A DNA stretch of 64,000 nt from Flavobacteriales bacterium (lineage in GTDB: Bacteria > Bacteroidota > Bacteroidia > Flavobacteriales > CAJXXR01), in the NCBI GenBank assembly GCA_049607525.1, contig JBMYWP010000011.1, positions 2,110 to 66,109 on the forward strand, in the 5' to 3' direction. Below, one piece after another: positions 12,661-62,442 of the stretch; position 1 is the stretch's first letter; each line of letters starts with the position of its first letter. The notes under the pieces were generated by a model, which worked only from the letters and a program-made list of their open reading frames with translations, ran no database searches and had not been told where the DNA came from. The translations under genes and the position numbers were made by a program.

Positions 12661-13710
12661 ATGGAACAGAAAATCACTTTATATTTTAATCAAGGTTCAA
12701 GCGATAAAGTTTACAAAGCGGCTTTAGAGGAGAAAGACGGATTGTATTTTGTAAACTTCGCTTACGGAAGACGAGGAAATACGCTTAAAACAGGAACAAA
12801 AACCCAAGTCGGTGTGGAGTTAGAAAAGGCTCAGAAAATATTCGACAAATTAGTAAATGGTAAAATGGCCAAAGGATACGAGAAATCAGAATCGGAGTCC
12901 AATGCCCATTATGTTTATGAATCGGATAAAATACAAACTGGAATACATTGTCAATTGCTTAATCCGATTGAGGAAAATACCCTGCAAGAAAAACTGAAAG
13001 ATGATCGATGGGTTTTACAAGCAAAAATGGATGGAAAACGTCTTTTAATCCAGAAAAAAGGAACAGAAGTTACTTTTATTAACCGAAAAGGGTTTTCGGT
13101 TGGTGCTCCAGATCAATTTCTAAATTGGGCGAATTCTATTTCCATTGATTTTTTAATAGATGGTGAAGCCATTGGTGAAGAATTTTATGCTTTTGATTTG
13201 TGGCAATACGATTCAAACGATTTAAAGGCTTTATCTTATGCCGAACGATTACCTTTTTTACAGAAAATGGACTGGAATAATAATATACACCTTGTCTCTA
13301 CAGCTTTTAGTTCATCGGAAAAAGAAAATCTTTATCAGCAATTAAAAGAAAAACATGCCGAAGGTATAGTTCTAAAACATTTGGACGCCCCTATTACTCC
13401 TGGTAGACCAAATTCTGGTGGACACCAACTTAAATTTAAATTTTACGAAACAGCCTCTTTCGTTGTCCATAAAATTAACGACAAACGAAGTGTGGGAATT
13501 CAGGTTTTTGAAAACGGCAAACCGATTGATGTTGGAAATGTTACCATTCCTCCCAACAAAAAAATACCGGCAGTACTTGACATTATCGAGATACGGTATT
13601 TGTATGCGTTTAAAGGCGGAAGCGTGTATCAACCCACTTTTTTAAATGCTAGAGATGATCTAAATCCGGAAGAATGTAGCTTAGAACAATTAAAATTTAA
13701 GCCAGAATAA
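12661..13710 (+). CDS. WGR domain-containing ATP-dependent DNA ligase
   Basis: N-terminal WGR: 'LYFNQGSSDKVYKAALEEKDGLYFVNFAYGRRGNTLKTGTKT...KAQKIFDKLVNGKMAKGY'. Nucleotidyltransferase motifs follow in order: I 'AKMDGKR' (Lys at 13024-13026), III 'FLIDGEAI', IIIa 'FYAFDLW', IV 'EGIVLK', V 'QLKFKF'. An OB-like tail comes last. Confidence 0.85.
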   Translation: MEQKITLYFNQGSSDKVYKAALEEKDGLYFVNFAYGRRGNTLKTGTKTQVGVELEKAQKIFDKLVNGKMAKGYEKSESESNAHYVYESDKIQTGIHCQLLNPIEENTLQEKLKDDRWVLQAKMDGKRLLIQKKGTEVTFINRKGFSVGAPDQFLNWANSISIDFLIDGEAIGEEFYAFDLWQYDSNDLKALSYAERLPFLQKMDWNNNIHLVSTAFSSSEKENLYQQLKEKHAEGIVLKHLDAPITPGRPNSGGHQLKFKFYETASFVVHKINDKRSVGIQVFENGKPIDVGNVTIPPNKKIPAVLDIIEIRYLYAFKGGSVYQPTFLNARDDLNPEECSLEQLKFKPE

Positions 13711-45648: not shown

Positions 45649-45688
45649 ATAATTAACAGCTTGTTTAACTCAAAACTGCAGTTAAGGA

Positions 45689-45933
45689 AATAGTCTTTTT
45701 TGTCAGTGTAGTATTTGATTTTCGTTAAGAAATTGGGAAACCTTGGACCAATTTTAGAAAAACAAATACGGTTTTTGGTCTTGAACCAAAAAACACCTTC
45801 AAAAAAGTGTCCTTTTCTTTGTTTCGTTTCTTTTGGACAAGCAAAAGAAATGAAAATCCTAGTGATAACGTCACGATGTTAAATTACATCTTAGTTAGAG
45901 GAAACTCTCAGAAAAACTTAAAACAATAATTCC
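45689..45933. repeat. duplicated intergenic leader element, copy B (partner at 15831..16073)
   Basis: See copy A. The 192-nt core 45714-45905 differs from copy A at 13 positions with no indels. Both hairpin stems are identical to copy A. Confidence 0.85.
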
Positions 45934-47280: not shown

Positions 47281-47320
47281 AAAAACAGTAGCTTTTACCA
47301 TTTTGTACTATTAAAAGAAT

Positions 47321-47686
47321 ATGCTTAATAAAGAACTAGAATATAATTTTCATGATTCGGTGGTTGTTAATTGTTTTTCTGAAAAACCCGATAGACTAAA
47401 CATAGCCGTTCAACTTTATGAAATATTTTACCCATCAAAAGATTTGATTCACCTCACTTTTTCTGGAATTTACAACACAGAAAAAACATTTAGGCTAATT
47501 AACCAGCTGAATGAGGATAATTTAGAATTGGACTGGAATGGAACTAGAGTAAATTCGATAGCCTACGACAAGAAGAAAATATCGAGTTCCTCAAATCTCT
47601 ATTTTTTTATTGATTTTGATGGCTATGAATCAATAAGAATACATTGTAAGGATTTACAAATTGAAAAAACTGCTAACATTTTATAA
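47321..47686 (+). CDS. hypothetical small protein
   Basis: 121-aa ORF with no motif. Confidence 0.4.
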   Translation: MLNKELEYNFHDSVVVNCFSEKPDRLNIAVQLYEIFYPSKDLIHLTFSGIYNTEKTFRLINQLNEDNLELDWNGTRVNSIAYDKKKISSSSNLYFFIDFDGYESIRIHCKDLQIEKTANIL

Positions 47687-47695
47687 AAATGAACC

Positions 47696-48352
47696 ATGGA
47701 AAAAGAAATTTATAAGAAAACTTATACAGAAGAAAACACTCCAGGATGGCAAGCCATAGATGATGCCTTAGAAAAGGTTTATGCCGAAAAAGAACCAAAA
47801 CACTATGGACCACTTTGTGGTATTCATTACGCTGCTGGGGGAACAGATCCGATTGATGGCATAAGTATTTACGAATCTCAAAAACACATGCCTCACAAAC
47901 ATATTGTAAGTTATGGCATGTCAGAATTGTATTATAACGAAGAGGCTGCTGGAGGAGAATTTAGCAAATGGGGATTTGAATTTACCTTTCGTTTAAAACC
48001 TTATAAAGAAGACAATGGAGAACCAGGTTGGGCTTTGCATTTGATGAATAATTTGGCTCGCTATGTAAACAACAAAGAACGTTGGTTCGAAGAAAACCAA
48101 TTCATACCAGGAAATGGTCCTATTCGTTTAAATACCGATACCGAAATCATTGGATTACTCTGTGTATTGGATCCCGAATTAGGAAAAATAAACACGGTTC
48201 ATGGTGAAGTATCCTTCATACAATTGGTCGGAATTACAGCTCGTGAATTAGAAGAATTACAAAAAAATCCAACAACCGCAGCTGTTGAACAATTGGTGAA
48301 CGAACTTAAAAAAGATAATCCTTTGCTCATTACAGACTTGGAAAGAAAATGA
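47696..48352 (+). CDS. suppressor-of-fused (SUFU)-like domain protein
   Basis: 'TPGWQAIDDALEKVYAEKEPKHYG', 'DPIDGISIYES', 'HIVSYGMSELY', 'WGFEFTFRLK', 'PGWALHLMNNLARYV' and 'LDPELGKINTVHGEVSFIQLVGITARELE' follow the bacterial SUFU family pattern closely. Confidence 0.8.
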   Translation: MEKEIYKKTYTEENTPGWQAIDDALEKVYAEKEPKHYGPLCGIHYAAGGTDPIDGISIYESQKHMPHKHIVSYGMSELYYNEEAAGGEFSKWGFEFTFRLKPYKEDNGEPGWALHLMNNLARYVNNKERWFEENQFIPGNGPIRLNTDTEIIGLLCVLDPELGKINTVHGEVSFIQLVGITARELEELQKNPTTAAVEQLVNELKKDNPLLITDLERK

Positions 48353-48417
48353 TGTTGGTTTGGAGATGAAAATATATTTTATAATTAAACTGTTTAACTT
48401 TAGTAAAAATAAAAAGC

Positions 48418-48801
48418 ATGAAAACATTAACAATAATAGACGAATCTGCTGCTGGTGATATTCTTCACCAAATGTCATTACAGTTTGAAAAGGAGTATAT
48501 CACGGCTAAAGAATTAATAGAAAAACGGATTGAGGAAGAAATTAACAATTATAAAAACCAAGTGAATGATTACAAAAATGGCTTGGTGTTGCCTACCAAT
48601 TTAGAAAAGCGTTTAAACAATAAAAAAACACCCAAAATAGATCTAGAAAAGCAAAAACTAATTGCATTTGATGCTTTTCAAAACAACCATTTCATCTTAC
48701 TCATAGATGATGAACAAGTAGAAGATCTTCAGCAAAAATATTTGGTGGATGAAACGGCTAAAGTTTCCTTTATAAAATTAACGCCCTTAGTTGGCGGATA
48801 A
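48418..48801 (+). CDS. ThiS/MoaD-like beta-grasp (ubiquitin-like) small protein ending in Gly-Gly
   Basis: 127 aa. The N-terminal 'KTLTIIDES..ILHQMSLQF..ITAKELIEKRIEEEI' fits strand-strand-helix. The C-terminal 'HFILLIDDEQVEDLQQKYLVDETAKVSFIKLTPLVGG' aligns with E. coli ThiS 'ALAINQQIVPREQWAQHIVQDGDQILLFQVIAGG'. GGC GGA at 48793-48798 is followed directly by TAA. Confidence 0.55.
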   Translation: MKTLTIIDESAAGDILHQMSLQFEKEYITAKELIEKRIEEEINNYKNQVNDYKNGLVLPTNLEKRLNNKKTPKIDLEKQKLIAFDAFQNNHFILLIDDEQVEDLQQKYLVDETAKVSFIKLTPLVGG

Positions 48802-48811
48802 AAAACAGAAC

Positions 48812-51724
48812 ATGATTTTAGAAAAATTAGAAGCATTATATCAGAATTATAATCATTACGCTATTGTTGATACAATAAAGCAAATCCCTGAAAATGAATG
48901 GGATTTAGAAATCGTTTTACATTATGCAAGAGCTTTAAACAATACAATTGAATACCAAGAAGCTATAGATGTATTAAACAAATATAAGGAAGGTAATACT
49001 CGTGTAGAATGGCATTATATTCAAGCCTCTGCCTACCATTCATTAGCTGATGATGCATTTCGACATTCAGGGAAATTGAGCGTTTTGAAAGAATCTCAAG
49101 AATATTTAAATACTGGATTAAAACTTGTCTTGAGTGGACTTAAAATAGATGGTGGATTTCAAAAATTAAAATCATTATTTCAGGAATATAATGCTTTAAA
49201 AATAATACTTAAGAAAGCCATTGAAGAAAGCTTAAAATTTAATGATATTGATTTTTCCACCTTAACCCCAAAACAAAAAGCTGCTTTATTACTTAACAAA
49301 CTCAATGAAACAAGGCGCTACTATATGGCAAACGATCTTTTAAAGGTTGAAGTCTTTGATAAAATCAAAAATGAATCTAATGGTGTAAAAAAAGAAATTA
49401 TTATTGAGCTTATTCATTTAATTGATTCAAAATCCCATAAAAACACCAATACAAATAATATAACAACCTCAATTGGAGGTTTAATAAGAAGTAATCTGGA
49501 CTATTCCGAAAAGGAATGGATTTTTCTTTTTTCTAAGTTTTTAGAATCTATAGGGAAAGGAAAATACCCAATTGTTATTTCTAATTTCCCGATAAATTAT
49601 AGCATTCAACAATTAGAACGCTATTTAAAGAAAAACGAAGCTTCTAAAGAATTACTAGTTTTTATCAATCAAATTTTGGAAGATCCTTCATTTTCGGAAG
49701 ACAATAACCAATACTGGGGAAGCGATTTAAAAAAATCCAAAAAGAAACTCTTAGACATTTTGAGTAAAAATGGTGTCCATACTGCCTTTAAATTAGGAAA
49801 CTCCGATATTGGACCAGTAGTAAATAATATTATTGATACGATAAGTGCTCAATTTGAACAATTTAATACCATTTTCATTCAGGCAAGTGAGGCTAGTCAA
49901 TCGAAACCCACTGCCAAGTTTCAAAAATTGATTAAAGAAAATATCGAGCAAATTGGAGCAGATACTTATCGAAAAATAGCCCAGAAAATTTTAGAAACAA
50001 CTTTTGATATAGGAATCCGACAAGAAACCTCTTATTACAAGGTTTTTCTTTCATCTTCAAACCAGCAATTTATCAAAGGAATTATTTGGACCATGGAACG
50101 TTTTTCGGATAAGGAAACCATTACTATTTTAAGTAAATTATTTCAAAAAGGATATGAAAAAATTCCTGGTCAAGGTCCCGCAGCCGCTTCATTAGGAAAC
50201 GCCTGTGCTTATACCCTCGGAAATATGCGAGGAAAAGAAGGTTTAGGTGCACTTTCTCGAATTAAGCTAAAATTGAAGCAAAATAACATCAAAAAAATAA
50301 TTGATAAATATTTAGTTGAAGGTGCAAAAAAATACAATGTTTCTGTGGAAGAATTAAAGGAAATGGCTGTGCCTGATTTTAAACTCGAAAAAGGTATAAA
50401 ATCCATTTCTTTCGATGATTATCAATTAAACCTAAATATTCAGGGCAATAAAGTAGAACAACAATGGATAAAACCAGATGGTTCTCCTATGAAAAGTGTG
50501 CCTTCGGCAGTTAAAAACAGTACAACTTTAGCGAATCAATTAAAGGTTGTTCGCAAAGAAATTAAGGAAATTCAAAAAGTATATTCTGCCCAAAAACAGA
50601 GAATCGATAATCAGTTTATCCTTGATAGAACTTGGGATTTTAGCAATTTTAATAAATATTATATACATCATGGTTTGGTTTATACCGTTGCTCAAAAATT
50701 AATTTGGACGTTCACCAGAGAAAATCAATCTGTAAATGCTATTTTATTGAAGGATAAATGGTATTCTGTAGAGCATGATTTAATTGATTGGTTAGACGAT
50801 TCTACCACTGTAAAATTATGGCATCCAGTACGTGCAAAAGAATCAGAAATTATTGCTTGGCGCGAAAAAATGATGGATTTAGAGTGGAGTCAACCTATAA
50901 AACAAGCGTTTAGAGAATTGTATATTCTGACCGATGCCGAATTGAATACAAAAAACTACTCCAATAGAATGGCAGCTCATATTTTAAAACAACATCAGTT
51001 TTATATGTTGGCTGGACTGCGTGGTTGGAAATATTCTTTAATGGGTTCTTATGACGATGGAATTTATAACGAAGTCTGCAGTAAATACCTTCCTGAACAC
51101 AAAATAACCGCTGAGTTTTGGATTGACGAATTAAACGATTACGATGCCTTTAATGATGCTGGAATTTGGTTGTATATTTCTACCGATCAGGTGAAATTCA
51201 AAAATGAAGAAGGACAAGCGATGGACTTGGTAAATGTGCCAAAAATGGTGTTTACAGAAATCATGAGAGATGTCGATTTATTTGTAGGTGTTGCAAGTGT
51301 TGGAAACGATCCTCAATGGATGGATAACAATGGGGAAAGACAAGAAAGTAGAAACTATTGGGAGTCTTATTCTTTTGGAAATTTAACCGAAATTGCTAAA
51401 ACACGAAAAACCATTTTAGAACGACTGTTACCACGACTTAAAAAGATCCGTGATAAGGCACATATTGATGGGAAATTCTTGATTGTTAAAGGTGAAATAA
51501 GAACCTATAAAATCCATATTGGATCAGGAAATATTTTAATGGAACCAAACGACCAATATTTATGTATTGTTCCTTCAAGATCACCCGAAACAGCTACTAA
51601 TAAAATATTTATTCCTTTTGAAGGCGACAAAGGCTTGTCTATAGTTTTAAGTAAGGCTTTTTTATTGGCAGAAGACACTAAAATTACAGATTCTACTATT
51701 ACGAGTCAGATAAACCATAAATAA
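48812..51724 (+). CDS. large (about 970 aa) DUF4132-type protein (MolR/YehI family), paralog of 23087..28024
   Basis: ORF 48791..51724 has a TTG start. I prefer the ATG at 48812 (MILEKLEALYQ). The C-terminal motifs shared with the 1645-aa paralog are listed under that feature. Confidence 0.7.
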   Translation: MILEKLEALYQNYNHYAIVDTIKQIPENEWDLEIVLHYARALNNTIEYQEAIDVLNKYKEGNTRVEWHYIQASAYHSLADDAFRHSGKLSVLKESQEYLNTGLKLVLSGLKIDGGFQKLKSLFQEYNALKIILKKAIEESLKFNDIDFSTLTPKQKAALLLNKLNETRRYYMANDLLKVEVFDKIKNESNGVKKEIIIELIHLIDSKSHKNTNTNNITTSIGGLIRSNLDYSEKEWIFLFSKFLESIGKGKYPIVISNFPINYSIQQLERYLKKNEASKELLVFINQILEDPSFSEDNNQYWGSDLKKSKKKLLDILSKNGVHTAFKLGNSDIGPVVNNIIDTISAQFEQFNTIFIQASEASQSKPTAKFQKLIKENIEQIGADTYRKIAQKILETTFDIGIRQETSYYKVFLSSSNQQFIKGIIWTMERFSDKETITILSKLFQKGYEKIPGQGPAAASLGNACAYTLGNMRGKEGLGALSRIKLKLKQNNIKKIIDKYLVEGAKKYNVSVEELKEMAVPDFKLEKGIKSISFDDYQLNLNIQGNKVEQQWIKPDGSPMKSVPSAVKNSTTLANQLKVVRKEIKEIQKVYSAQKQRIDNQFILDRTWDFSNFNKYYIHHGLVYTVAQKLIWTFTRENQSVNAILLKDKWYSVEHDLIDWLDDSTTVKLWHPVRAKESEIIAWREKMMDLEWSQPIKQAFRELYILTDAELNTKNYSNRMAAHILKQHQFYMLAGLRGWKYSLMGSYDDGIYNEVCSKYLPEHKITAEFWIDELNDYDAFNDAGIWLYISTDQVKFKNEEGQAMDLVNVPKMVFTEIMRDVDLFVGVASVGNDPQWMDNNGERQESRNYWESYSFGNLTEIAKTRKTILERLLPRLKKIRDKAHIDGKFLIVKGEIRTYKIHIGSGNILMEPNDQYLCIVPSRSPETATNKIFIPFEGDKGLSIVLSKAFLLAEDTKITDSTITSQINHK

Positions 51725-52432
51725 ATGGGACTTTTTGATGTGCATCATAAAATCATTGGAAAAGAGATTCAAAATCAAATTGAAAACACCACCATCGCTA
51801 TTATTGGCCTTGGTGGTTTGGGTTGTCATGTTGCACAGATTTTATACAGAACCGGATTTAAAAATCTGATATTAATTGATGATGATCTGGTACAAGAATC
51901 CAATTTACCGAGACAAATTTTATTTCATCAAAGCGATATAGGAAAATCAAAAGTAACAGTTGCAAAAGCAGAATTAGAACGTTTTTGTAAAGGAAACATT
52001 CAATGTTTTCAAAAACGATTGACTTCTAAAAATGCCATTCAATTACTTAAAAACACTGCAATAACAGTAGATTGTACCGATAATTTTACTGCTCGTTATG
52101 CCATTAGCGAAAGCTGTAAACAATTAGATATTCCTATGATTTATGGAGGTGTAAATCGGTTTGACATTCAGGTGGCTACCTTTGGTTTTCAAAATGGGAT
52201 GTATTTTCACGAAGCTTTTCCCAATAAAAAGCTTTTATTTCAATCGGAAGATTGCAATGCTTCTGGTGTTTTACCTCATATGATTGCACTCGCAGCAAAT
52301 TATCAAGTGAATGAAATAATAAAAATGTTTTGCTCAGAAAATATTAAGACTAATCAGTTGTTTTGTTTTAATGCAAATACGGGGAAACAGCGATGGATTA
52401 ATCTTAGAAAACCTTTCAAGGAAAATAATTAA
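51725..52432 (+). CDS. ThiF/MoeB/HesA-family E1-like adenylyltransferase
   Basis: 'IAIIGLGGLGCHVAQIL' (GxGGxG, 51806-51823), 'LILIDDDLVQESNLPRQ', 'DIGKSKV', 'VDCTDNFTARY' and 'EDCNASGVLPHMIALAANYQVNEIIK' (conserved Cys + GVL). The ATG directly follows the TAA of the upstream DUF4132 gene. No rhodanese domain or CxxC zinc motifs. Confidence 0.85.
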   Translation: MGLFDVHHKIIGKEIQNQIENTTIAIIGLGGLGCHVAQILYRTGFKNLILIDDDLVQESNLPRQILFHQSDIGKSKVTVAKAELERFCKGNIQCFQKRLTSKNAIQLLKNTAITVDCTDNFTARYAISESCKQLDIPMIYGGVNRFDIQVATFGFQNGMYFHEAFPNKKLLFQSEDCNASGVLPHMIALAANYQVNEIIKMFCSENIKTNQLFCFNANTGKQRWINLRKPFKENN

Positions 52433-52622
52433 ATCTTGATGAATTACTACTTCCTGAATTTTCAAAAACACTTCACAAATAACATCATTCAATTGTATGA
52501 TTTAATAATTCAAATTCATTTATTGCTTGCTTATATAAATTTCCTTCCCCCTAATATAAAATAGATATATCTGATAAATAATCTTTTCTTACATTGAATA
52601 ATAGATTAAATAAAGTCCAAAA

Positions 52623-55259
52623 ATGACCATCATCCAACAATTCAAAAACCTAGAGCAACTAACCCATGTCACCGAATTTCTAATCGGTTTAACTCCAGCG
52701 GAACAAGAGGAATTAAAAAATCACCTCATTGCTTCTGATAAAACTGAAAATGAATTTCGTCGTTATGATGAAGAACATCTAGCTGTGTTGGCAGTCGTTC
52801 CTTACAGCATTTGGAAAAAGTTTAATTATTACCATCCCGGATATTTTTTAACCAGAAGTTATAAAGCGTATCAAGCATTCACCAATCCCATTTTTGAAAA
52901 ATTTCCACCGAGTTGGATGAATGCTTATTTTGCTTCTGAAGATCGATATGCTAATTTTGATAATTACCATCAATATCGTTATTACCAGGATAAAAATTGG
53001 ATAACTAAAATTGAAGATAGCAAGGTTGTCTTTGCCATTTTACAATACAGTTCTCGCGATGAAATACCACAATGTTGGCAGTTTTTTAACGACTTCCCAA
53101 AAGAAGATGAATTTTGGAAAAAGTATGTTCCACTATTTTTTGAAATAGAAACCCATATCGGACATTCTATTCGAAGAAAAGGAAAGAAAATTGATGATTT
53201 TGGTGGTTTTTACAGCTTGTTTTTACGTGCTGTTAAAGAAGGTATTTATAGCAAAAAACAAGTCTTAGGTTGGTGTTTAAAAGCCATGAGACGCCCGGAC
53301 AATAAATATTACGTAACATTTTTTAGAGATGTTTATCTTGGATTAGAACCTACCGTGGAAGAACGCATTTATTTCCAGAAAGAAATCATGGGTTTATACG
53401 ATTCGGAATATATTCTAAACTTTGTTTTAGAGGAAGTAAAAACGATGGCAAAAAGTCCAGAATTTGATGCCAATACCTTTCATCCTATTGCAGAGTTTTC
53501 AATAACAGTCAACACAAAATCTGTCTATACAAAAACACTGCAAATCATAAAATTATTACTAAAAACTAATCCCGATTTGTGGAATTCAGTTCTTATTCAA
53601 GGATTGATACAAACGGATGTAAAATTCCAAGAAAATATATTGACGCTTTTAGGGAAACAAAAGTTAAATGCCGAACATCAAGAGATGGCAGAAATGATGG
53701 CTGAGCAAATTCAAGTTTCTCTACAAAATCGGTTTCAGGAAGTTTTTAATATTCAGGGAGAGTCAACACAAATGGTTTCAACAGAAATCTACCAAAAACA
53801 AACACCTACTTTTGATGTATTGGCTTTAGAAAGTGTGAAACCAATTGAACAATGGGAAGACTTTGTAGCCCTTTTAAACAGTTTTTCTTCTTCTGAAAAT
53901 GTGGTAGATTATGAGCAAATTTTACAAGGACTTATTCATTTTCATTCTTTGGTAAGTCCTGAAGATTTCACGGCTTTAAAGCCAATTATTAAGCGAGTAT
54001 CTAAAACCAATTTTCTGTCTGATGAGAGAACTTCTGGCACGTTCAATAAACTTGTTTTCAAACATATTGAACGATGGACAAAAGAATGGTTTTTAGATGA
54101 AAATTTATTCATAGAATACCGAGGAACGCATAAACTGTTCAAAAAACGCATGGAAAGTATCGAATTTTATATTCATCAAAAATCGACTTTGCCTTTATTG
54201 AGTTTTCCTACCCATGCGCCTTATTGGGTTTCTGCAACCAGGCTAATTAATCGATTAGAAGAGTATCAAAACTCAGGCATTAAAATTGCTCCTTTCGATT
54301 TTGCAGTTGCCCTTGCAAGATGTGTTGTTCCATCAGATTTTGACAAGAAATCTATCGATAAACTTCAGGGTTTACCCAAAGATTTGCTCACTTATTTTTG
54401 TACAGAAGCATGTTTAGATCAATTTGATACCTCTGATCCATTATGGGCAGTTACAGCAAGAACCAAAGAACCTTATGCAATTCATGAAGCATTAAAAAAG
54501 CATGCTTATGCCAATTTTGAAGCCGTGGTATATCCTTTTAAACCTGAATTAATGGTTAAAGAATTTGAGGATTATGATGGAAAAGAAATAAAATATGACA
54601 CAAAAGCCAATAAGAACACCAATTTATTAGATGCAAAAGAAGAAACTTTATTGTATTCTGTAGAAAGATGTTATATAGAAGCTGTTTCAGACACACCATA
54701 TCTGCAATCTTTTATGCCCAACCACGAAATAGTGACTCCTTTGGATTTTTATGATATAGTTCCTGGTGTAAATTATGCTTATGAAGGTTATGCTTTGGAG
54801 CGCTATCTTCATTGTTTTTATATTTATGGAAAACCTGTAAATACCCAAAAAAATTATTTTTTAGCCGCTGCATTATTGTTCGACAAAACCAATTACAGAC
54901 AATTGGCTTTTGAAACTTTTAATGAAGGAATCGATTTAAAAGTGTTGGATTTAAAGGAAATGGCGCAAGCTTTTGTGCATTTTACGCAAGAAAATAAAAC
55001 ACCTGTAAAGCGTTTTACCATTTTACAAGATTATCTCTTCCAAAATGTAAATCACGACCAAGCCTTTATCCAATTATTAGAAGAAATAATTCAACTTATA
55101 GAAACAGTGCCAAAAGGTTTTAAATCTGTATTGGAAATATATCTACAGCTGAAACTAAAATACAATCAAAATACATCTCATATTTCATCAGCATTAGAGA
55201 AATTTAAAACAGTGACTTCCTGTAAAAAGGTTTGTAATCAACTAATAAACTTAAAATGA
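52623..55259 (+). CDS. large helical hypothetical protein (878 aa), paralog of 57194..60235
   Basis: Shared blocks with the 1013-aa protein include 'LSFPTHAPYWVSATRLINRLEEYQNSGIKIAPFDFAVALARC' / 'LSIPTNEGLWIKPEVLVERLEVYQSQNSEPNIHDFSLAIQRL' and C-terminal 'LFDKTNYRQLAFETFNEGIDLKVLDLKEM' / 'LFNEKKESRHLALECFIQLIELKLLSKDI'. It may correspond to the SWIM-associated DUF6493 family, but I am unsure. Confidence 0.55.
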   Translation: MTIIQQFKNLEQLTHVTEFLIGLTPAEQEELKNHLIASDKTENEFRRYDEEHLAVLAVVPYSIWKKFNYYHPGYFLTRSYKAYQAFTNPIFEKFPPSWMNAYFASEDRYANFDNYHQYRYYQDKNWITKIEDSKVVFAILQYSSRDEIPQCWQFFNDFPKEDEFWKKYVPLFFEIETHIGHSIRRKGKKIDDFGGFYSLFLRAVKEGIYSKKQVLGWCLKAMRRPDNKYYVTFFRDVYLGLEPTVEERIYFQKEIMGLYDSEYILNFVLEEVKTMAKSPEFDANTFHPIAEFSITVNTKSVYTKTLQIIKLLLKTNPDLWNSVLIQGLIQTDVKFQENILTLLGKQKLNAEHQEMAEMMAEQIQVSLQNRFQEVFNIQGESTQMVSTEIYQKQTPTFDVLALESVKPIEQWEDFVALLNSFSSSENVVDYEQILQGLIHFHSLVSPEDFTALKPIIKRVSKTNFLSDERTSGTFNKLVFKHIERWTKEWFLDENLFIEYRGTHKLFKKRMESIEFYIHQKSTLPLLSFPTHAPYWVSATRLINRLEEYQNSGIKIAPFDFAVALARCVVPSDFDKKSIDKLQGLPKDLLTYFCTEACLDQFDTSDPLWAVTARTKEPYAIHEALKKHAYANFEAVVYPFKPELMVKEFEDYDGKEIKYDTKANKNTNLLDAKEETLLYSVERCYIEAVSDTPYLQSFMPNHEIVTPLDFYDIVPGVNYAYEGYALERYLHCFYIYGKPVNTQKNYFLAAALLFDKTNYRQLAFETFNEGIDLKVLDLKEMAQAFVHFTQENKTPVKRFTILQDYLFQNVNHDQAFIQLLEEIIQLIETVPKGFKSVLEIYLQLKLKYNQNTSHISSALEKFKTVTSCKKVCNQLINLK

Positions 55260-55825
55260 TACACAAATCCATAGAAATAGAATACGCTGATAAAAAATTA
55301 TCAAAAACGGAATTTGAACAAAAAATCACTGCTTTTGAAACACAATTTAGTTGTAAGCTTCCTGCAGTTTTTAAAGATTTTTTGCATCAATATGGCAATG
55401 CGAGTTTAGAAGTTGTTGTTCCTATTTTAGAAACGAATCCCCTTTGTGATGAAGTTCCTTTGGATTTATTTTTTGGATTTGAAGCAGATGAAAACATCAT
55501 AGAAAACACAAAAATTGCAGACGGATTTCCCGTGGCGATTCCCTTTGCAGAAGATTTGTCTGGAAATTGGTATTATTTGTATTTAGGCCATCATCAGAAG
55601 GAAAGTAAAGTGTACTTTCATGACAGACAAGGACGTTATCATTGGACCGACAAACAATTTTACGACATGTTTGAAAATTTGGCTCCAGAAATTCAAACGT
55701 ATTTAGAACTCCGACAAAACAACCAACTTCCAGCAAAAGATGAAGCTTTTCATGACTTTTATTTGGTCGGAAATACCTTTGAAGAATTTATCAGCAATCT
55801 AAAACCAATTACATACGAAGATTAA
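55256..55825 (+). CDS. SMI1/KNR4 (SUKH) family protein
   Basis: 'ITAFETQFSCKLPAVFKDFLHQYGNASL' and 'IPFAEDLSGNWYYLYLG...KVYFHD'. 4-nt ATGA overlap with the upstream gene. Confidence 0.75.
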   Translation: MIHKSIEIEYADKKLSKTEFEQKITAFETQFSCKLPAVFKDFLHQYGNASLEVVVPILETNPLCDEVPLDLFFGFEADENIIENTKIADGFPVAIPFAEDLSGNWYYLYLGHHQKESKVYFHDRQGRYHWTDKQFYDMFENLAPEIQTYLELRQNNQLPAKDEAFHDFYLVGNTFEEFISNLKPITYED

Positions 55826-57190
55826 ATGAACACAACCTATACCTACAATTCACAAAGCGAAATAACTACCAAAGAAAATGGAAAAGAAATCTTTCTTTCT
55901 CATTTTAACGAATCCTATGCTATTGAAGAAAAACCATGTTTTTTCTGGGGAAAACTACAGCAACCCTACGTAATTGCTCGCTCGTTATTGATGCTGTCCA
56001 AAATTGTGTCCAGCAATTTTATGCCCACTTCTTCTGCCATGCGCGATCCGGTTATTACTTCTGGCGGAAATAAATTGCGTTTTGAAGCCTTTTCTGGTTG
56101 TTGTTCTATCTATGGAAAAGTAGATGTTTTACCAAAGGCGATGGATGGCGAATTTTTAGAACAAGGCACCACTAATGTCGATTTTAATCCAGATATGATT
56201 TCGGCTTTGAGCCAGATTGGTAGAGATGAAAAAGTGTTTTTTTCTGTAGGTAAAAAAGATTTTGTGTTGCAAAAATCCAACAAAAAAGTGGTGGAGAAAA
56301 AAGTCTCTTTACCCACCCGTTGGATAAAAGGAATGGCAAATGTTCAGCAAATTTCGGCTGAAATGAACAAGGTATTTACTTTTAATAAATTACAAACCCA
56401 ACTCTTTTTTAGAGCCATTCCCAAAGGCACTTTAAAAAACGATTATTACCTCAAGCAATTAGGAACAAAACCCATGCTTTCACCTGTAAAATCTAAAGGT
56501 GCCATTTGTATTGGTGGTTTGCACCGTTTGCGTGTAGTTGAAGGTATTTTGCCTTTAACCAAAGAGCTTCATGTATTTGATAATTATGAAAAAGGCGTTG
56601 CTTTTCAGTTTATTTTAGAGGATGTTCGTTTTACGGTAACCCTTTCTCGTAGCCATTGGCGTGGCTTTTCTGGCGAAGGAAGTACCTTGGAAAATCTTTT
56701 GGAAGACATTCCTGAGGCTTGGATTCAGAAATTAGATGAGTTTGCTCAAATAAAAGAAGAATTTTCAGAGAAAAATGAGGTCTTTCAAGAATTAGAACAA
56801 GCCAATTTTAAACATGTTTGTGCTCGTTTGGCTTCTATAGGATTATTAGGATTCGATTTGCATGACCAACAGTATTATTATCGCAAATTACCATTTAAAC
56901 TCGAACGAATAGAAAGTTTAAATCCACGCTATAAAAATGCTTTAAAAATATTGGCAAAAAACAAATACGAAATCACAGATATTACCGATCAAGGCATCAA
57001 AGTTTTGGTTGAGGGAAGCGGATTAAAACACCGCATTGTTTTGGATGATAAAACGGCAAAATGTACCTGTACATGGTATGCCGAACATCAAGGCAAACGT
57101 GGCGACTGCAAACATATTTTAGTTGCTAAAACCTTAAAAAACAATTCCGAAAAACAAATAGCAGATTTACTTAAAGAATTTGAATTATAA
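55826..57190 (+). CDS. SWIM zinc finger family protein
   Basis: C-terminal 'KCTCTWYAEHQGKRGDCKHILVAKTL' is CxCx(n)CxH (about 57062-57120). The start immediately follows the upstream stop. Confidence 0.8.
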   Translation: MNTTYTYNSQSEITTKENGKEIFLSHFNESYAIEEKPCFFWGKLQQPYVIARSLLMLSKIVSSNFMPTSSAMRDPVITSGGNKLRFEAFSGCCSIYGKVDVLPKAMDGEFLEQGTTNVDFNPDMISALSQIGRDEKVFFSVGKKDFVLQKSNKKVVEKKVSLPTRWIKGMANVQQISAEMNKVFTFNKLQTQLFFRAIPKGTLKNDYYLKQLGTKPMLSPVKSKGAICIGGLHRLRVVEGILPLTKELHVFDNYEKGVAFQFILEDVRFTVTLSRSHWRGFSGEGSTLENLLEDIPEAWIQKLDEFAQIKEEFSEKNEVFQELEQANFKHVCARLASIGLLGFDLHDQQYYYRKLPFKLERIESLNPRYKNALKILAKNKYEITDITDQGIKVLVEGSGLKHRIVLDDKTAKCTCTWYAEHQGKRGDCKHILVAKTLKNNSEKQIADLLKEFEL

Positions 57191-57193
57191 GCC

Positions 57194-60100
57194 ATGATCA
57201 ACACATTAATCAAACTATACGAGAATAGAGATCTGTTAGGATTAGAGCAGTTTTTAACCGATAAATCGGAAGAAAAAAGAAAAGCTGTTGGCGAGTTTTT
57301 AGATCAAACAGAAGATTTAAGTATTGAAATTGATCCAGAGATAAAACGTTACGTTCCACATTATGATACCACAGAAGATTATAGAATAAAAGAGGCCGAA
57401 AGACGTAGGATAGCTTGTGAAAAACATTTTTGCTATCAAATTCTTTGCGCTTATTATTATAGTTTTCAAGACTATCAAAAAAAATATCCTAAATACGCCA
57501 CACGGTACCATCCTTTTGTGCATGTGCCCTCTGTGTATAACGATATCATTACCAGAATTCTTTTCTTCCAGGATAAAAAAGAATATTTCACTGCCTTTTA
57601 CAAAGTGAATGTTCGAGAAAAACCTCAAGCTTTTATCGCAGATATTCATAAAAGAAATGCGAGTCCAGAATCGTTTGCAACTCGTATTCGATGGGAAACC
57701 ATGCGCGTTTTTTATACTTACGGATTAATGCCTTATGATAAAATGACTTTCTTGGGCTGTTTATTACATCCGTTTTGGGGAAAGTTAAATTCCTATGAAC
57801 CCGATTGGAAAGAGGGTTTAGACGATACTATTTTGAAGTGTTTTTTACCAACAGATGAACTTGCTTTAGAAGTTTTGTATGGTATTTTTGAAATGGAAAT
57901 CACCATATCTGGTGTGCTCTGGCAACAAGGCTATTCATTGGAATCCGTATTTCTGAGAATGGTACAAAAAGGACAATTGGATAGAGCTATTATTCAAGAA
58001 AAGTTGATTCAAGCCATGGGGAATCCAACCTTTAAAAAGTCTTCTTTTTCTTGGTTTACCAATATGTATAAAAACATTAAATTTTCTAATGAAGAAAATT
58101 TAAAGGAATTGCATAATCTCATGGGATTATTGACTTCTGATGTAGGTGGAATTCGAAAACTAGCTCTTGATGTTTGTAAAAAACAACATAAAAATAAGGC
58201 ATTTGACTGGCAGATGTTTGAAAGTCAGATTGCTTCTTTTGTGAATTTTGAAGGAAAAGGTAATTTAAAAACGTTTATTAAAATAATTGAGTTTCGCTTG
58301 AGTCAAAATCCAAAATCTAAGTCAAGGATATTAGAGGATTTAGCTGGTATCTATATCAATCAAGATGCTGATATCCAGAAACTGGCAACCGCTATTTTCT
58401 TATCAGAAACACTTTCAGAAAACATAAAAAGCGCCTTAGAAATCTATAAAGATAATATGATTACGGAGGTGCAACAGCAGTTGTTTGGTGATTATGAAAA
58501 GGCTTTGGCTCCACTAGAAAAATATGCTTGCACTAAAAATTATATTCCTAAGTTACCAGCAGCATTAGATATTTCAACCACAGAAGAAGATTATATTTAT
58601 TTGCTTTCACAAACCATAAAAAGTGAAAACAAAGAAGATAAAAATAAGATTTTGGCTCGTTTTGCAGATTTTCAGTATTTATCCACCGAAAAACCTGAAT
58701 TATTAAAACCTATTAAACGACAAGTTGACAATAAAATAAAGCGTTTTGCGTATACTGATTTTGACATTTTCTTGCATTATTGGATTTATAGTAAAGAAAA
58801 ATTTTCATCAATTTGGTCTTCTTGGATTCCGCTTACTAAACGTCTTAAAAAAGTAAAAAAATTTACTCAATTAAGGTATTATGATTTCAAACCAGAAAGT
58901 ATTCAAGGTGAATTAAAGAAAAAAGGATTACCACTATTGAGTGACCAATCTAAATCTTTGAATTATCAAATATTATTTAACCGATTAAAAGAATATTTCG
59001 CTAAAGAAGAAAAGCCAAATCTTGATGATTTCATGACAGCCTACAATAGCGTGAGTTGGTCAGATAGAGACACCGGAGTAAAGGAAATTAAACAAGAAAT
59101 AGGTACCTTTTTAGACGTTGATTGCTTTTTGTTTTTAGCCTATCGAATTGGTTTCCAAACAAAGTGGCATGATTATGAACGCTATATCGAAGTCATTTTT
59201 AAAGGTTCCTTTTATCATTCAATTATAGAAAATTTAGGAAAAGCCCCTATTCTTTCTATTCCAACAAATGAAGGTTTGTGGATTAAACCAGAAGTTTTAG
59301 TGGAACGATTAGAAGTTTATCAATCACAAAATAGTGAACCGAACATTCATGATTTTTCTTTGGCCATTCAGCGTTTATACTTGTATAATAAATTACCGAA
59401 TATAGATTCAGAATTGGAATACTTTCAGATTTTAGATTTTCTATTTACAGATAAAGATATTCCAAAAAAGAGAACAGAATATTGGGAAAAAGCGTGGGTA
59501 TTTGCTACACAGCGTAAATTTCCATTACAAACAAGTATTCTTTACAAATATGATAAGAAACAAGACTGGGCAGTCTTTAGTGATTTTAAACTAAAGGTAT
59601 TTTACGATGGCGAATTTACAAGGATTAATACAGAGCTTGCTCCTAATCTTCATGGTTGGACAATATATCCATATACTTTAACTTATGAAAAGCCATTTTT
59701 CACTGAGAATGATTTTATGCAAAACATTAATTACACTTTTTCTTATGATAGTAATTTGTATTTGTTAAATAAATTAATGGCTAAGCCACAATTTTTAGAT
59801 TATCACGGTCAATTATTTTTAATTGAACAACTTTTTAATGAGAAAAAAGAATCTCGTCATTTGGCTTTAGAATGTTTTATTCAATTGATTGAGTTAAAAC
59901 TATTGTCAAAAGATATTTTTAATATCATTACCGATATAATGACTTGCCATAGCAAGGCCGTTCCAGTTGGTAGAGTTTTAGAATTTTTAACTGCTTTAAA
60001 AGACATGCAAGGCGTTTATTACGATATCTGTATCCAGATTTTTGAACAACTTTTTGCTAAACTTCAATTGGATCAAATTCCACGTAGTTCTGCCAAGTTA

Positions 60101-60235
60101 TTTCAATTGTATGGCGAAATTTTAAAGGAAACAGATCATGAAATATCAGAACAGGCACAAAATGATTTAACAAGATTACAAACCGTAAAATCCTTGAAAA
60201 AAGCAATTGCTCCTTTGTTGAAAATGAGTGAATGA
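57194..60235 (+). CDS. large helical hypothetical protein (1013 aa), paralog of 52623..55259
   Basis: See 52623..55259. The start is 3 nt after the SWIM gene stop. Confidence 0.55.
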   Translation: MINTLIKLYENRDLLGLEQFLTDKSEEKRKAVGEFLDQTEDLSIEIDPEIKRYVPHYDTTEDYRIKEAERRRIACEKHFCYQILCAYYYSFQDYQKKYPKYATRYHPFVHVPSVYNDIITRILFFQDKKEYFTAFYKVNVREKPQAFIADIHKRNASPESFATRIRWETMRVFYTYGLMPYDKMTFLGCLLHPFWGKLNSYEPDWKEGLDDTILKCFLPTDELALEVLYGIFEMEITISGVLWQQGYSLESVFLRMVQKGQLDRAIIQEKLIQAMGNPTFKKSSFSWFTNMYKNIKFSNEENLKELHNLMGLLTSDVGGIRKLALDVCKKQHKNKAFDWQMFESQIASFVNFEGKGNLKTFIKIIEFRLSQNPKSKSRILEDLAGIYINQDADIQKLATAIFLSETLSENIKSALEIYKDNMITEVQQQLFGDYEKALAPLEKYACTKNYIPKLPAALDISTTEEDYIYLLSQTIKSENKEDKNKILARFADFQYLSTEKPELLKPIKRQVDNKIKRFAYTDFDIFLHYWIYSKEKFSSIWSSWIPLTKRLKKVKKFTQLRYYDFKPESIQGELKKKGLPLLSDQSKSLNYQILFNRLKEYFAKEEKPNLDDFMTAYNSVSWSDRDTGVKEIKQEIGTFLDVDCFLFLAYRIGFQTKWHDYERYIEVIFKGSFYHSIIENLGKAPILSIPTNEGLWIKPEVLVERLEVYQSQNSEPNIHDFSLAIQRLYLYNKLPNIDSELEYFQILDFLFTDKDIPKKRTEYWEKAWVFATQRKFPLQTSILYKYDKKQDWAVFSDFKLKVFYDGEFTRINTELAPNLHGWTIYPYTLTYEKPFFTENDFMQNINYTFSYDSNLYLLNKLMAKPQFLDYHGQLFLIEQLFNEKKESRHLALECFIQLIELKLLSKDIFNIITDIMTCHSKAVPVGRVLEFLTALKDMQGVYYDICIQIFEQLFAKLQLDQIPRSSAKLFQLYGEILKETDHEISEQAQNDLTRLQTVKSLKKAIAPLLKMSE

Positions 60236-60292
60236 AACAGGAATGGTAATATTTATTTCTAAAAAACCAATTTCTAATCCTTTTTTGAATCT

Positions 60293-61390
60293 ATGATAGA
60301 AATCACTTTAACAGAAAATAGTTCTTGTCAAATTTCACCAAACCAACCAAGTTTCACCATTGGTAAATTGGGTATGAATTCTGATGATTTTGACGTGCTA
60401 ATTGATGAAAACACTCCAATTAACTGGGAAGTATTTGAGGATATTGATTCGATTAAATGGTTTGTTTATCATGGAAATGATCTTGGCTTTATTTCTCTTT
60501 CAGAAAAAAGAAAAATAAGCCATTTTACTTGGTATCCAACGAAGCATTTAACTGTCAATTTTAATAAAAGTCAAATTCGTGGTTTAACTATAGAATCGAA
60601 AAAGCTTTTAACCTTAGTACTTGGGCAAAATATTTTTGAATTATCCTTGTTTGGAGAGTTAAATAATTACGCCATCAGTGGAATTCCTTTTCGGCAACAT
60701 TTGACTTTAGGACCAAATACAACAAACACTTTAGAGTCCTATCAAATCCCCCATTTTTCTGGTTTACAAGGTTGCTGTAGTCTAACCATTCTAAACCAAG
60801 CCGACAAACAAGCCATCGATTTAGACTTTTTAAACCGTTATAAAGAGATTAGTAGCCTAAATATTCATGGAAATTGTACAAACTGGAAGGTGTTAAAAAA
60901 AATTGGTAATTTGAATACTTTAGGCTTACGTTTTATTCCAGATTTATCCGATTTCCCTGCGCTATCCAATTTTCCAAATTTAATAACTTGTATTGGTTAT
61001 AAAATAGAAGAAAATTCAGGCAATAAACTGTTGGAAGAAACAGAGTATATTTCTCAGATTAACCCAGATGGATTTTATAAGATTTCAGATTTAAGAAAAT
61101 CGGAATGGTTAATACATCATGCTCAATCGCCTTTCCTTTGGTGGAAATCAGGAATGGAGGAATTTGCCTTAAATAAGTATCAAATTGCCCTTAAATCATT
61201 GAAAATTTCCAAAACAGAAAACGAAGTTGTAAACGCTTTAAGAGCATTTTTAAATCCATTTAAAGGGTTGGATTATATAAAAAAATCACAACAAGATGAT
61301 CTGTTTTATGCAATCGAAAAATTACTGAAAGAAACAACAATTCACATACCTAAAAGTCGATTAAAAGAACTTTTTGAGGCTGTTTTTTAA
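60293..61390 (+). CDS. hypothetical protein with LRR-like segment
   Basis: 365 aa. 'ISSLNIHGNCTNWKVLKKIGNLNTLGLRFIPDLSDFPALSNFPNLITC' looks LRR-like. Confidence 0.4.
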   Translation: MIEITLTENSSCQISPNQPSFTIGKLGMNSDDFDVLIDENTPINWEVFEDIDSIKWFVYHGNDLGFISLSEKRKISHFTWYPTKHLTVNFNKSQIRGLTIESKKLLTLVLGQNIFELSLFGELNNYAISGIPFRQHLTLGPNTTNTLESYQIPHFSGLQGCCSLTILNQADKQAIDLDFLNRYKEISSLNIHGNCTNWKVLKKIGNLNTLGLRFIPDLSDFPALSNFPNLITCIGYKIEENSGNKLLEETEYISQINPDGFYKISDLRKSEWLIHHAQSPFLWWKSGMEEFALNKYQIALKSLKISKTENEVVNALRAFLNPFKGLDYIKKSQQDDLFYAIEKLLKETTIHIPKSRLKELFEAVF

Positions 61391-62094
61391 TGGATAAACT
61401 TATGAAAGCACCTATTATTCTTGAAAATAAAACATTTTATGACAAACAAAAACATTTTGCTCAATATGGATCTGTTGTGGATTTAGCGCAGTTTTATTTT
61501 AGTGAAAATCTAGCATCAGATAAAGATTTTTCTTTGTTTGTGGTTAAAGAAGCCTTTCGAACTTTTAGGCAAAGAAATATGGATATTTTTGAAGAAATGG
61601 ATAAACAGAATAATAGTACTTATTATTTAGATTTAAAATTCTATGGTGAATTTGCTGATGTCAATCAAGGATTAGATGAGGTTACTATTAAAGGAGAAGA
61701 AATTTCATTAAATACCTTTTTAGGAGATGCTTATGATATGGCGAAAAAAGAAATAATAGCTCCACCAACTAATGGATTAAGTTATGCCTTATTAAATCCT
61801 CCTTATCATTTAAGTCTTCAAGAATTTATACGGAAAGAAGCTAGAGAATATGTGAAATACGATTTAAAATTACAGCTAAATAAGAACGTGATTCAAACTA
61901 AAATTTTCAACCAATTTATCCAAACCATGGGTATAAACACAGAAAAAGAAAATGCAAACATCATTTATCAATGGACAAATAACTGGGAAGAAGATTTAGA
62001 TCCTGGTAAAGAATGGTGGGGATCGTTTTTATGGACTATTTTAAACAAAGAAAAAGGCGAAATATTAGTTATTTCCGCCTCAACTACAGATTAA
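61390..62094 (+). CDS. hypothetical protein
   Basis: 234-aa ORF. Its ATG overlaps the upstream TAA (TAATG). Ends '...GKEWWGSFLWTILNKEKGEILVISASTTD'. Family not recognised. Confidence 0.45.
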   Translation: MDKLMKAPIILENKTFYDKQKHFAQYGSVVDLAQFYFSENLASDKDFSLFVVKEAFRTFRQRNMDIFEEMDKQNNSTYYLDLKFYGEFADVNQGLDEVTIKGEEISLNTFLGDAYDMAKKEIIAPPTNGLSYALLNPPYHLSLQEFIRKEAREYVKYDLKLQLNKNVIQTKIFNQFIQTMGINTEKENANIIYQWTNNWEEDLDPGKEWWGSFLWTILNKEKGEILVISASTTD

Positions 62095-62105: not shown

Positions 62106-62294
62106 ATGCTATTGAAATTTTCTGAAAACATCTATTTTATTTGCTCAATAATTGTGTTTGTTCTCTTTTGTGCTTTTCTTTTGTATCAAGTAAAAAAGAT
62201 GTCAAAATTATTAAAAGAAGAATACGAAGAATTCTATAATCCTAATAAAAAAACGAATTCAAATACGGACAAAAGATCTAAATCGCAAGATTAG
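62106..62294 (+). CDS. hypothetical small membrane protein
   Basis: 62 aa with one TM helix (IYFICSIIVFVLFCAFLLY) and a basic tail. Confidence 0.3.
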   Translation: MLLKFSENIYFICSIIVFVLFCAFLLYQVKKMSKLLKEEYEEFYNPNKKTNSNTDKRSKSQD

Positions 62295-62410: not shown

Positions 62411-62442
62411 AAAGGCTTTTCAAAATCGAAAAGCCTTTTTTG
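62411..62442 (+). terminator. rho-independent terminator closing the + strand operon
   Basis: AAAGGCTTTTC-aaaatc-GAAAAGCCTTT is an 11-bp perfect stem (62411-62438) followed by TTTTG. Confidence 0.8.

Follow-up and report, generated by a model that had tools for sequence, protein, structure and literature searches.

Mx162 and Mx65 were the first retrons to be discovered. Together with Ne144 and Sa163 they are classed as type XIII retrons, a group that tracks 16S phylogeny and may be domesticated (Mestre et al., 2020; PMC7736814). The SWIM protein associated with these retrons (cluster 114_1) carries an acidic motif of the form Dx7[D]x4Ex30-32Dx37E, a DprA-like winged helix and a C-terminal SWIM finger (CxCx12CxH); its gene is usually preceded by one for a HEAT/ARM-like protein, often fused to a WGR-like domain, and a transposase-like nuclease was inferred for it from the motif alone (Mestre et al., 2020). 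The locus described here lies in a 64,000-nt stretch of a Flavobacteriales bacterium (contig JBMYWP010000011.1 of assembly GCA_049607525.1, positions 2,110 to 66,109; hereafter the window, meaning the whole stretch), and is centred on two consecutive genes, one for a 454-aa SWIM zinc finger family protein and one for a 1013-aa protein of the DUF6493 type. This pair can be assigned with high confidence to the same family as the type XIII retron accessory module, of which it appears to be a relative without a reverse transcriptase (RT). The pair and the two genes preceding it have the following layout, in which the internal features of the SWIM protein are taken from sequence alignments and from an AlphaFold2 (AF2) model:

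52623..55259, + strand: 878-aa DUF6493/DUF7824/DUF7825 paralog (Pfam), outside the conserved core
55256..55825, + strand: 189-aa SUKH-1 (SMI1/KNR4) protein (Pfam), a lineage-specific accessory gene abutting the SWIM gene
55826..57190, + strand: 454-aa SWIM zinc finger family protein, core gene 1 and the conserved anchor of the module
57194..60235, + strand: 1013-aa DUF6493/DUF7824/DUF7825 protein, core gene 2 and the cognate partner of the SWIM protein in this clade
55937..56665, + strand: predicted two-domain PCNA-like clamp, SWIM protein residues ~38-280 (AF2 and Foldseek; range inferred from the secondary-structure pattern)
56708..56890, + strand: winged-helix-like segment, SWIM protein residues ~295-355 (AF2 secondary structure H-H-H-strand-strand)
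57062..57115, + strand: SWIM zinc finger ligands C413-x-C415-x12-C428-x-H430, invariant in alignments (Pfam SWIM, 18.2 bits)

The family assignment is carried by the SWIM protein. The 454-aa protein of the window matches the PADLOC model SWIM_XIII at 1.5e-51, and homologs from other phyla match it at ~1e-50, in one case through a single match over nearly the whole model. Its acidic residues follow the cluster 114_1 spacing (D74-x7-N82-x4-E87-x31-D119-x37-E157), with N82 at the bracketed [D] position, and are followed by a winged-helix-like segment and a CxCx12CxH finger. The acidic tetrad (D74, E87, D119 and E157), a GTTNVD motif and the sequence RGFSGEG are invariant in Bacteroidota, Actinomycetota and Pseudomonadota, as are the zinc ligands C413, C415, C428 and H430 in homologs from three phyla, and the C-terminal SWIM finger recognised in a preliminary description of this DNA is thereby borne out. 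The Pfam SWIM score of the window protein falls slightly under the PF04434 cut-off of 19.6 bits; many of its homologs carry a precomputed PF04434 match. The family is also large: a word-indexed search returned more than 2,200 homologs, the best 120 of which are 46-62% identical to the query and, where named, come from Bacteroidota, and a full HMMER scan yielded 1,398 representatives at 50% identity, nearly all of 430-480 aa.

Beyond the SWIM protein, the likeness to type XIII retrons extends to its pairing with a large all-helical protein and to the presence of a WGR protein in the same island. Unlike in those systems, neither an RT nor msr/msd RNA was found in the window, the helical partner is of the DUF6493/DUF7824/DUF7825 type, and the locus has gained a SUKH gene as well as a further paralog. 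The module is regarded as an RT-less version because Pfam detected no RVT domain in the window's open reading frames (ORFs) of at least 100 aa (three short ORFs were left unscanned), because Rfam gave 0 matches for msr/msd RNA in the window (a database that may not model the type XIII noncoding RNA), and because the comparison of loci given below reveals no third conserved gene. In PADLOC-DB v2, SWIM_XIII was the sole match within the module, with none for the DUF6493 proteins, the SUKH protein or the downstream ORFs. Type XIII models other than SWIM_XIII were matched only by a distant gene of the window, and not by the large helical proteins adjacent to the SWIM gene:

12661..13710, + strand: WGR and ATP-dependent ligase protein (Pfam WGR and DNA_ligase_A_M), 42 kb upstream

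The WGR domain on this ligase had been pointed out in the preliminary description and is confirmed by Pfam. The protein matches the PADLOC model WGR_XIII at 3.2e-27 and, over nearly its full length, the 370-position model PDLC02920 ('HEAT-ARM_XIII') at 6.4e-11; what the latter model captures would seem to be a protein like the WGR-ligase, not one made of HEAT/ARM repeats. In another Bacteroidota locus (L011, 7071-8120), an ortholog of the ligase (3.2e-18) is found 1.9 kb upstream of SWIM. The searched literature held no mechanistic paper on the SWIM or helical effectors of type XIII retrons.

The part of the SWIM protein that holds the acidic tetrad is predicted to adopt the fold of a sliding clamp. 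An AF2 model built from a 13-sequence alignment (predicted local distance difference test score, pLDDT, 75.8; predicted template modelling score, pTM, 0.72) comprises a disordered N-terminus, a beta-rich part, the winged-helix-like segment and the SWIM finger. Its beta-rich part, at residues ~38-280 and with pLDDT mostly between 80 and 95, consists of two domains that each run twice through a beta-alpha-beta-beta-beta pattern. Foldseek returned 490 matches to this model in the Protein Data Bank (PDB) at E<=1e-3, and the 50 best were all PCNA, viral PCNA-like clamps or subunits of 9-1-1 (best E-value 4.8e-9; template modelling score per target 0.54-0.68). The tetrad is located in the first clamp domain of the model. 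The DEDE region would hence form a two-domain PCNA-like clamp, a fold prediction in conflict with the idea of a transposase-derived nuclease, which Mestre et al. (2020) based on the motif alone. What the SWIM protein has in common with the sliding clamps is the predicted fold, two tandem clamp domains, and not sequence similarity; unlike PCNA and 9-1-1 it possesses an invariant acidic tetrad and a fused winged helix and SWIM finger, and shows no link to replication genes. No internal repeat between the two clamp domains is detectable in the sequence, and there is no clamp-loader gene adjacent to the SWIM gene.

The composition of the module was established on 87 Bacteroidota loci, taken with 10-kb flanks where the contig allowed, by using every window protein as a query against the ORFs of all six frames and clustering all ORFs in an all-versus-all comparison. 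The SWIM family is present in 87/87 of these loci and the DUF6493 type in 83/87, where it accounts for 112 copies; no third conserved gene family was found among them, and the conserved unit is a two-gene pair of a SWIM gene and a DUF6493/DUF7824/DUF7825 gene. In most genera the DUF6493 gene lies directly 3' of the SWIM gene, usually with overlapping stop and start codons, and the pair is apparently translationally coupled. The DUF6493 gene is found 5' of the SWIM gene in Chryseobacterium and in some Bacteroidales (Parabacteroides, Dysgonomonas and Tannerella), and 18/87 loci hold two or three DUF6493 copies in tandem. Bracketing of the SWIM gene by DUF6493 genes is seen in the window and in 0/87 of the other loci. 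The neighbours are otherwise variable and comprise 361 non-redundant ORFs, mostly singletons.

The same pair is annotated well beyond the Bacteroidota, in Streptomyces, Asticcacaulis, Diaphorobacter (with two DUF6493 copies) and on a Chondrinema plasmid, with SWIM proteins that are 30-48% identical over their full length, and it occurs with a 4-nt overlap in Actinomycetota, Alphaproteobacteria and Betaproteobacteria. These pairs, named 'SWIM zinc finger family protein' and 'DUF6493 family protein' by NCBI, match the window in gene families, in the SWIM-then-DUF6493 order and in the overlapping stop and start; the window differs from them in adding a 5' DUF6493 paralog and a SUKH gene. The contexts of the pair include an OLD/UvrD pair with IS110, an integrase with VapC/Phd, SLATT, HEPN, and a plasmid rep/par region, so that the module is often, if not always, found among mobile or conflict genes. 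Searches of 50,697 phage records and of IMG/VR contigs yielded no homologs of the module. In two Chryseobacterium loci (L002 and L003, 100-21300), genes for an Rnl2-type RNA ligase, RNase T, a PIF1 helicase, Ro60/TROVE and TerD/TelA lie near the pair, surroundings that may amount to an RNA/DNA-stress neighbourhood.

Both large proteins of the window contain the same three Pfam domains in the same order, all scoring above the Pfam gathering cut-offs: DUF6493 (PF20103; 79.4 bits in the 878-aa protein and 67.3 in the 1013-aa protein), DUF7824 (PF25148; 140.1 and 89.8) and DUF7825 (PF25149; 83.3 and 64.4). They align colinearly by BLASTP at 24% identity (E 2e-10), and the paralogy proposed for them from shared colinear blocks holds, as does the DUF6493 membership that had been put forward for checking. 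In the closest loci, the gene directly 3' of SWIM encodes an ortholog of the 1013-aa protein (E 1e-50 to 1e-63), and the SWIM and 1013-aa genes of the window are the ordinary orthologous pair of this closest clade. The best relatives of the 878-aa paralog are instead partners of a different SWIM clade (7e-48, locus L016). An AF2 model of the 878-aa protein from five sequences is all-helical and unreliable (pLDDT 39.9), a DUF6493-family profile returned one meaningless match among PDB sequences, and word-index searches with both proteins retrieved only the queries and near-identical sequences. A candidate fusion of the two families was also considered: P0274, an 832-aa protein with a SWIM protein N-terminus and the DUF6493 N-terminal region (hhalign 96%), was rejected as a Rosetta-stone fusion, since the SWIM 'CKH' is lost at the junction, and probably reflects read-through of a frameshift where the two genes overlap, in an organism of high GC content.

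A sister strain provides a close comparison. Its contig (L091), reached through the nearest homolog of the 1013-aa protein, has ~94% DNA identity to the window, and positions 45918-61411 of the window were compared with positions 3678-14359 of L091 by blastn and junction sequences. The gene order in L091 is SUFU, SUKH, SWIM, an extra 189-aa gene and the DUF6493 partner; missing is a block that holds exactly the genes for a ubiquitin-like protein (Ubl), a DUF4132 protein, a ThiF-type E1 and the 878-aa paralog:

48418..48801, + strand: Ubl, with C-terminal VGG*
48791..51724, + strand: DUF4132/DUF7737 protein (Pfam)
51725..52432, + strand: ThiF-type E1 (Pfam)
48354..55253, + strand: 6.9-kb block of Ubl, DUF4132, ThiF and 878-aa paralog genes, present in the window and missing in L091 (blastn)

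The L091 junction falls at a microhomology, AAATGAT, which doubles as the overlapping stop and start in both arrangements, and the simplest reading of the 6.9-kb difference would be a deletion in the L091 lineage. L091 also has an extra 330-aa SUKH gene upstream, and unrelated genes in place of the 365-aa ORF (60293-61390) that follows the pair in the window. The array is a mosaic of removable cassettes, in which the strains differ by whole genes at gene boundaries, and SUKH, SWIM and the 1013-aa DUF6493 gene persist together in L091, where both the Ubl cassette and the second paralog are missing. A PADLOC scan of L091's WGR proteins gave only weak matches, to the WGR domain.

The three shared proteins evolve at very different rates between the window and L091, as seen in amino acid identity and in nonsynonymous (dN) and synonymous (dS) divergence:

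SWIM protein: 98.5% amino acid identity, dN 0.007, dN/dS 0.02
SUKH protein: 89.9% amino acid identity, dN 0.050, dN/dS 0.22
1013-aa partner: 78.6% amino acid identity, dN 0.136, dN/dS 0.27

The SWIM protein is under strong purifying constraint, and its 1013-aa partner changes ~20 times faster. The gene of the latter is 83% identical to its L091 counterpart at the DNA level, compared with 92-94% for the flanks, and its dS is 0.51 as against 0.15-0.32; the low identity and raised dS suggest either that a more distant allele was brought in by recombination or that evolution has accelerated.

The assignment of the 189-aa protein to SMI1_KNR4/SUKH-1 (PF09346) is firm at 48.9 bits against a cut-off of 25.4, in agreement with the SMI1/KNR4 motifs reported for it. 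Its 0-nt junction with the SWIM gene is kept in the window and in L091, and a SUKH gene stands beside SWIM in 0/87 of the other loci. The protein resembles the SUKH immunity proteins of polymorphic toxins in being a single-domain SUKH-1 protein in an array rich in immunity-type families; it differs from them in that no adjacent toxin was found and in that it abuts SWIM in two strains. Pfam detected no toxin domain in the neighbouring ORFs that could mark a cognate toxin, several of these neighbours having no family match and so being possible novel toxins. With its gene immediately adjoining SWIM in the two strains, the SUKH protein may be a binding accessory rather than an antitoxin. The searched literature offered nothing useful on SUKH together with SWIM. 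Immunity-type families are spread over the array and the region 8398-18608: besides the SUKH genes at 9046-9678 and 55256-55825 they include SUFU (47696-48352), ankyrin (44473-47280), DMP19-like (39717-40580), DUF1266 (13730-14491) and leucine-rich repeat (LRR) plus DUF1963 proteins (16074-18608 and 32628-34850). No toxin gene was recognised in this immunity-type array of the window.

The neighbouring Ubl-DUF4132-E1 cassette is as it had been described, with a Ubl ending in VGG* and a DUF4132 and DUF7737 protein followed by a ThiF-type E1 according to Pfam. The preliminary description had further read this neighbourhood as a module swap, in which a Ubl/E1 pair replaces the MoxR-VWA pair of the Escherichia coli K-12 yeh cluster. 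The E. coli layout from yehF to yehQ was correctly given and the MoxR-VWA pair is indeed absent from the window; the equivalence itself is not supported. Likeness to the yehF-yehH(molR)-yehI-yehL-yehM-yehP-yehQ cluster is confined to the domain level, with WGR, DUF4132 and SWIM in one neighbourhood, and the window and the sampled loci differ from it in lacking MoxR, VWA and DUF5682. YehQ carries its SWIM finger N-terminally, at residues 56-88, and was rejected as a homolog of the SWIM protein, with an hhalign probability of 0.09 and BLASTP similarity limited to the finger. YehM, unlike the DUF6493 partner, is a DUF5682 protein, and the two families are unrelated (hhalign probability 0.09), so that the suggestion of testing the giants against DUF5682 and YehM led to a negative result; DUF4132 giants were likewise rejected as distant paralogs of DUF6493 (hhalign probability 0.07). 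MoxR, VWA, DUF5682 (YehM) and ThiF occur in 0/87 Bacteroidota loci within flanks of up to 10 kb, and the searched literature held nothing useful on yehLMPQ.

The linkage of SWIM with DUF4132 fares somewhat better. DUF4132 occurs in 1/87 loci, L011, in which the WGR-ligase, the SWIM-DUF6493 pair and a Ubl-like gene with a DUF5724/DUF4132 giant are contiguous and co-directional, and the 878-aa paralog was lost jointly with Ubl-DUF4132-ThiF in L091; on the other side stand the single locus among 87 and the separability seen in L091. A homolog of the Ubl-DUF4132 pair in TARA sequences (61% identity) has neither ThiF nor SWIM/DUF6493 nearby. The linkage was concluded to be a clade-restricted island association, possibly with facultative cross-talk, and not a module swap in an obligate system. 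A Ubl-like ORF lies directly 5' of a DUF4132 giant in four places, namely at 48418-52432 and 22663-28024 of the window, at 14497-20261 of L011 and at 9515-12508 of a further locus (L089), and the pairing of Ubl with DUF4132 seems to be conserved in its own right. An exposed VGG* forms the C-terminus of the first Ubl of the window and of its TARA homolog, and LTGTYW* that of the second Ubl and of its ortholog in L011; a ThiF-type E1 gene follows at only one of the four places, the first in the window.

The four ORFs of the module and its flanks lie on the + strand at the coordinates first given for them, with spacings of -4, 0 and +3 nt, and the downstream ORFs and terminator are likewise present:

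60293..61390 (365 aa), 61390..62094 (234 aa) and 62106..62294 (62 aa), + strand: three ORFs with no family match
62411..62438, + strand: hairpin terminator with an 11-12-pair stem followed by a T run, which ends the co-directional array

Of the proposed four-gene operon the tight spacing stands and the delimitation does not. Positions 37081-62294 hold 22 co-directional genes with gaps of -14 to +87 nt except for two (190 and 285 nt); tight spacing runs through this whole array, and therefore spacing alone defines no four-gene operon. The 190-nt gap lies directly 5' of the 878-aa gene, between it and ThiF. The promoter motif TAnnTTTG was not found in this gap and is not enriched across the window, a sigma-70 promoter scan stayed below shuffle expectation, and Rfam at gathering thresholds gave no match (tRNA, rRNA or riboswitch) in the 64 kb of ~31% GC sequence. 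Several large ORFs of the window (434-852 aa) are unmatched in Pfam and PADLOC, at 28031-30589, 9686-11266, 37645-39177, 31315-32619 and, on the - strand, 34905-36779; the first, of 852 aa, trails a DUF5724-DUF4132 giant by 6 nt.

Taken together, these observations make an RT-less, DNA-directed two-component conflict module of the defence type the most likely reading of the region, at even odds. The pair would act on its own as the sort of conflict module that serves type XIII retrons as effector. Within it, the SWIM protein would be a DNA-engaging, possibly metal-dependent catalytic core, and the DUF6493 partner would bind it and act as a variable sensor or regulator, filling the role that falls to the RT, the msDNA (multicopy DNA in single-stranded form) and the WGR-HEAT/ARM protein in the retron versions. 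The SUKH protein would be an accessory specific to this lineage that probably binds or inhibits, and the 878-aa paralog would serve as an alternative to the first helical partner, encoded in a removable block together with Ubl-DUF4132-E1. This functional reading of the pair, in which DNA targeting, complex formation and a defence role are all inferred, is offered tentatively, at even chances or slightly less.

Several observations weigh against it. The clamp assignment depends on the 13-sequence AF2 model, a SWIM-family profile found 0 matches at the sequence level in the PDB, and the DEDE residues sit on a clamp, a fold not known to serve as a scaffold for catalysis. The module also shows no effector domain that could be recognised as a nuclease, protease, TIR or the like. 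Because the DUF6493 proteins match neither the HEAT-ARM_XIII nor the WGR_XIII model of PADLOC, they may be analogous rather than homologous to the helical partners of the retrons, and no paper in the searched literature mentions DUF6493, DUF7824 or DUF7825. The fast change of the partner may reflect relaxed constraint in an alpha-solenoid rather than an arms race, its dN/dS being 0.27 and not above 1. Lastly, in Chryseobacterium the pair is in conserved synteny across many species, which looks more like vertical inheritance than a mobile defence island.

The immediate neighbourhood of the pair admits two further interpretations. The cassettes may be no more than adjacent residents of a 25-kb immunity-like array (SUKH, SUFU, ankyrin, DMP19-like), with SUKH as an orphan immunity gene and the 878-aa gene as a stray copy, neither of which works with the SWIM pair. 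This is possible, if somewhat unlikely. The array-wide tight spacing fits it, as do the second SUKH gene at 9046-9678 and the further ones in L091, the SUFU, ankyrin, DUF1266, LRR-DUF1963 and DMP19-like genes nearby, the whole-gene indels (the 6.9-kb block, the extra 189-aa gene, the replaced 365-aa ORF and the extra SUKH) and the lack, in 87 other loci, of SUKH beside SWIM or of DUF6493 on both flanks. It accounts less well for the SUKH-SWIM 0-nt junction kept in both strains and for the want of any toxin gene in the window that would call for SUKH immunity, and multiple DUF6493 copies per SWIM gene are regular elsewhere, so that a second copy is not odd. The SWIM operon and Ubl-DUF4132-E1 could conversely form one system, like molR/yehI and yehLMPQ of E. 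coli with Ubl/E1 in place of MoxR/VWA, in which the giants and the SWIM protein would, for instance, be the targets of Ubl conjugation or the regulators of the Ubl. The adjacency of operon and cassette in the window, the loss of the 878-aa paralog and Ubl-DUF4132-ThiF as one 6.9-kb block, the L011 pair lying between a WGR-ligase and a Ubl-like gene with its DUF4132 giant, the E. coli juxtaposition of WGR, DUF4132 and SWIM, and the coupling of WGR and HEAT/ARM proteins with the SWIM family in type XIII retrons (PMC7736814) all speak for such a system. It is nevertheless quite unlikely: DUF4132 is found in 1/87 loci and ThiF, MoxR, VWA and DUF5682 in 0/87, the pairs of three other phyla stand alone, L091 keeps SUKH-SWIM-DUF6493 without the cassette and with SWIM still under strong purifying selection, no homology links YehQ to SWIM, YehM to DUF6493 or DUF4132 to DUF6493, the TARA Ubl-DUF4132 homolog goes without ThiF and SWIM/DUF6493, and ThiF and the 878-aa gene are 190 nt apart.

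The pair might also have no part in conflict at all, and be a vertically inherited factor of DNA metabolism, either a clamp-like adaptor in repair or recombination or a domesticated transposase derivative. SWIM fingers are known from recombination mediators (Shu/Sws1) and from transposases of the MuDR type, and the predicted combination of a PCNA-like fold, a winged helix and a SWIM finger in one protein would suit such a role. The stable synteny across Chryseobacterium species, the very strong purifying selection on the SWIM protein and the agreement of type XIII retrons with 16S phylogeny, with its hint of domestication (PMC7736814), point in the same direction. Against this, neighbourhoods differ widely between genera, the pair is found on plasmids and beside integrase and toxin-antitoxin genes, the number of DUF6493 copies is variable and the partner quick to diverge, and a housekeeping function is accordingly judged unlikely. 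A bolder version of the conflict-module reading can be formulated, in which the SWIM protein is an enzyme with a clamp fold that forms a PCNA-like ring or half-ring, uses its tetrad for metal-dependent DNA chemistry and is gated by a rapidly diversifying DUF6493 sensor; it would represent the ancestral effector captured by type XIII retrons (Mx162 and Mx65), wired here through the extra paralog to Ubl-DUF4132-E1. As a whole this is a long shot.

The pair itself is already known, in that it is annotated by name in many genomes, merely as 'SWIM zinc finger family protein / DUF6493 family protein', and in that the SWIM protein is modelled in PADLOC as a retron accessory. What appears to be new with respect to the searched literature is the recognition of the pair as a widespread RT-less relative of type XIII, the prediction of a PCNA-like fold for the DEDE region, and the variant with a SUKH gene and a bracketing second paralog tied to a Ubl-DUF4132-E1 block. 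The retron relationship and the clamp fold are the two most informative of these points, and both had been missed in the preliminary description. The comparison with L091 serves as a natural dissection of the locus, revealing which genes belong together and which are separable. The clamp prediction for the DEDE region would shift the expected biochemistry towards DNA encirclement or end binding over simple nuclease action, and the RT-less two-gene module, distributed over at least three phyla with ~1,400 representatives at 50% identity, may provide a simpler system for the study of type XIII accessory function.

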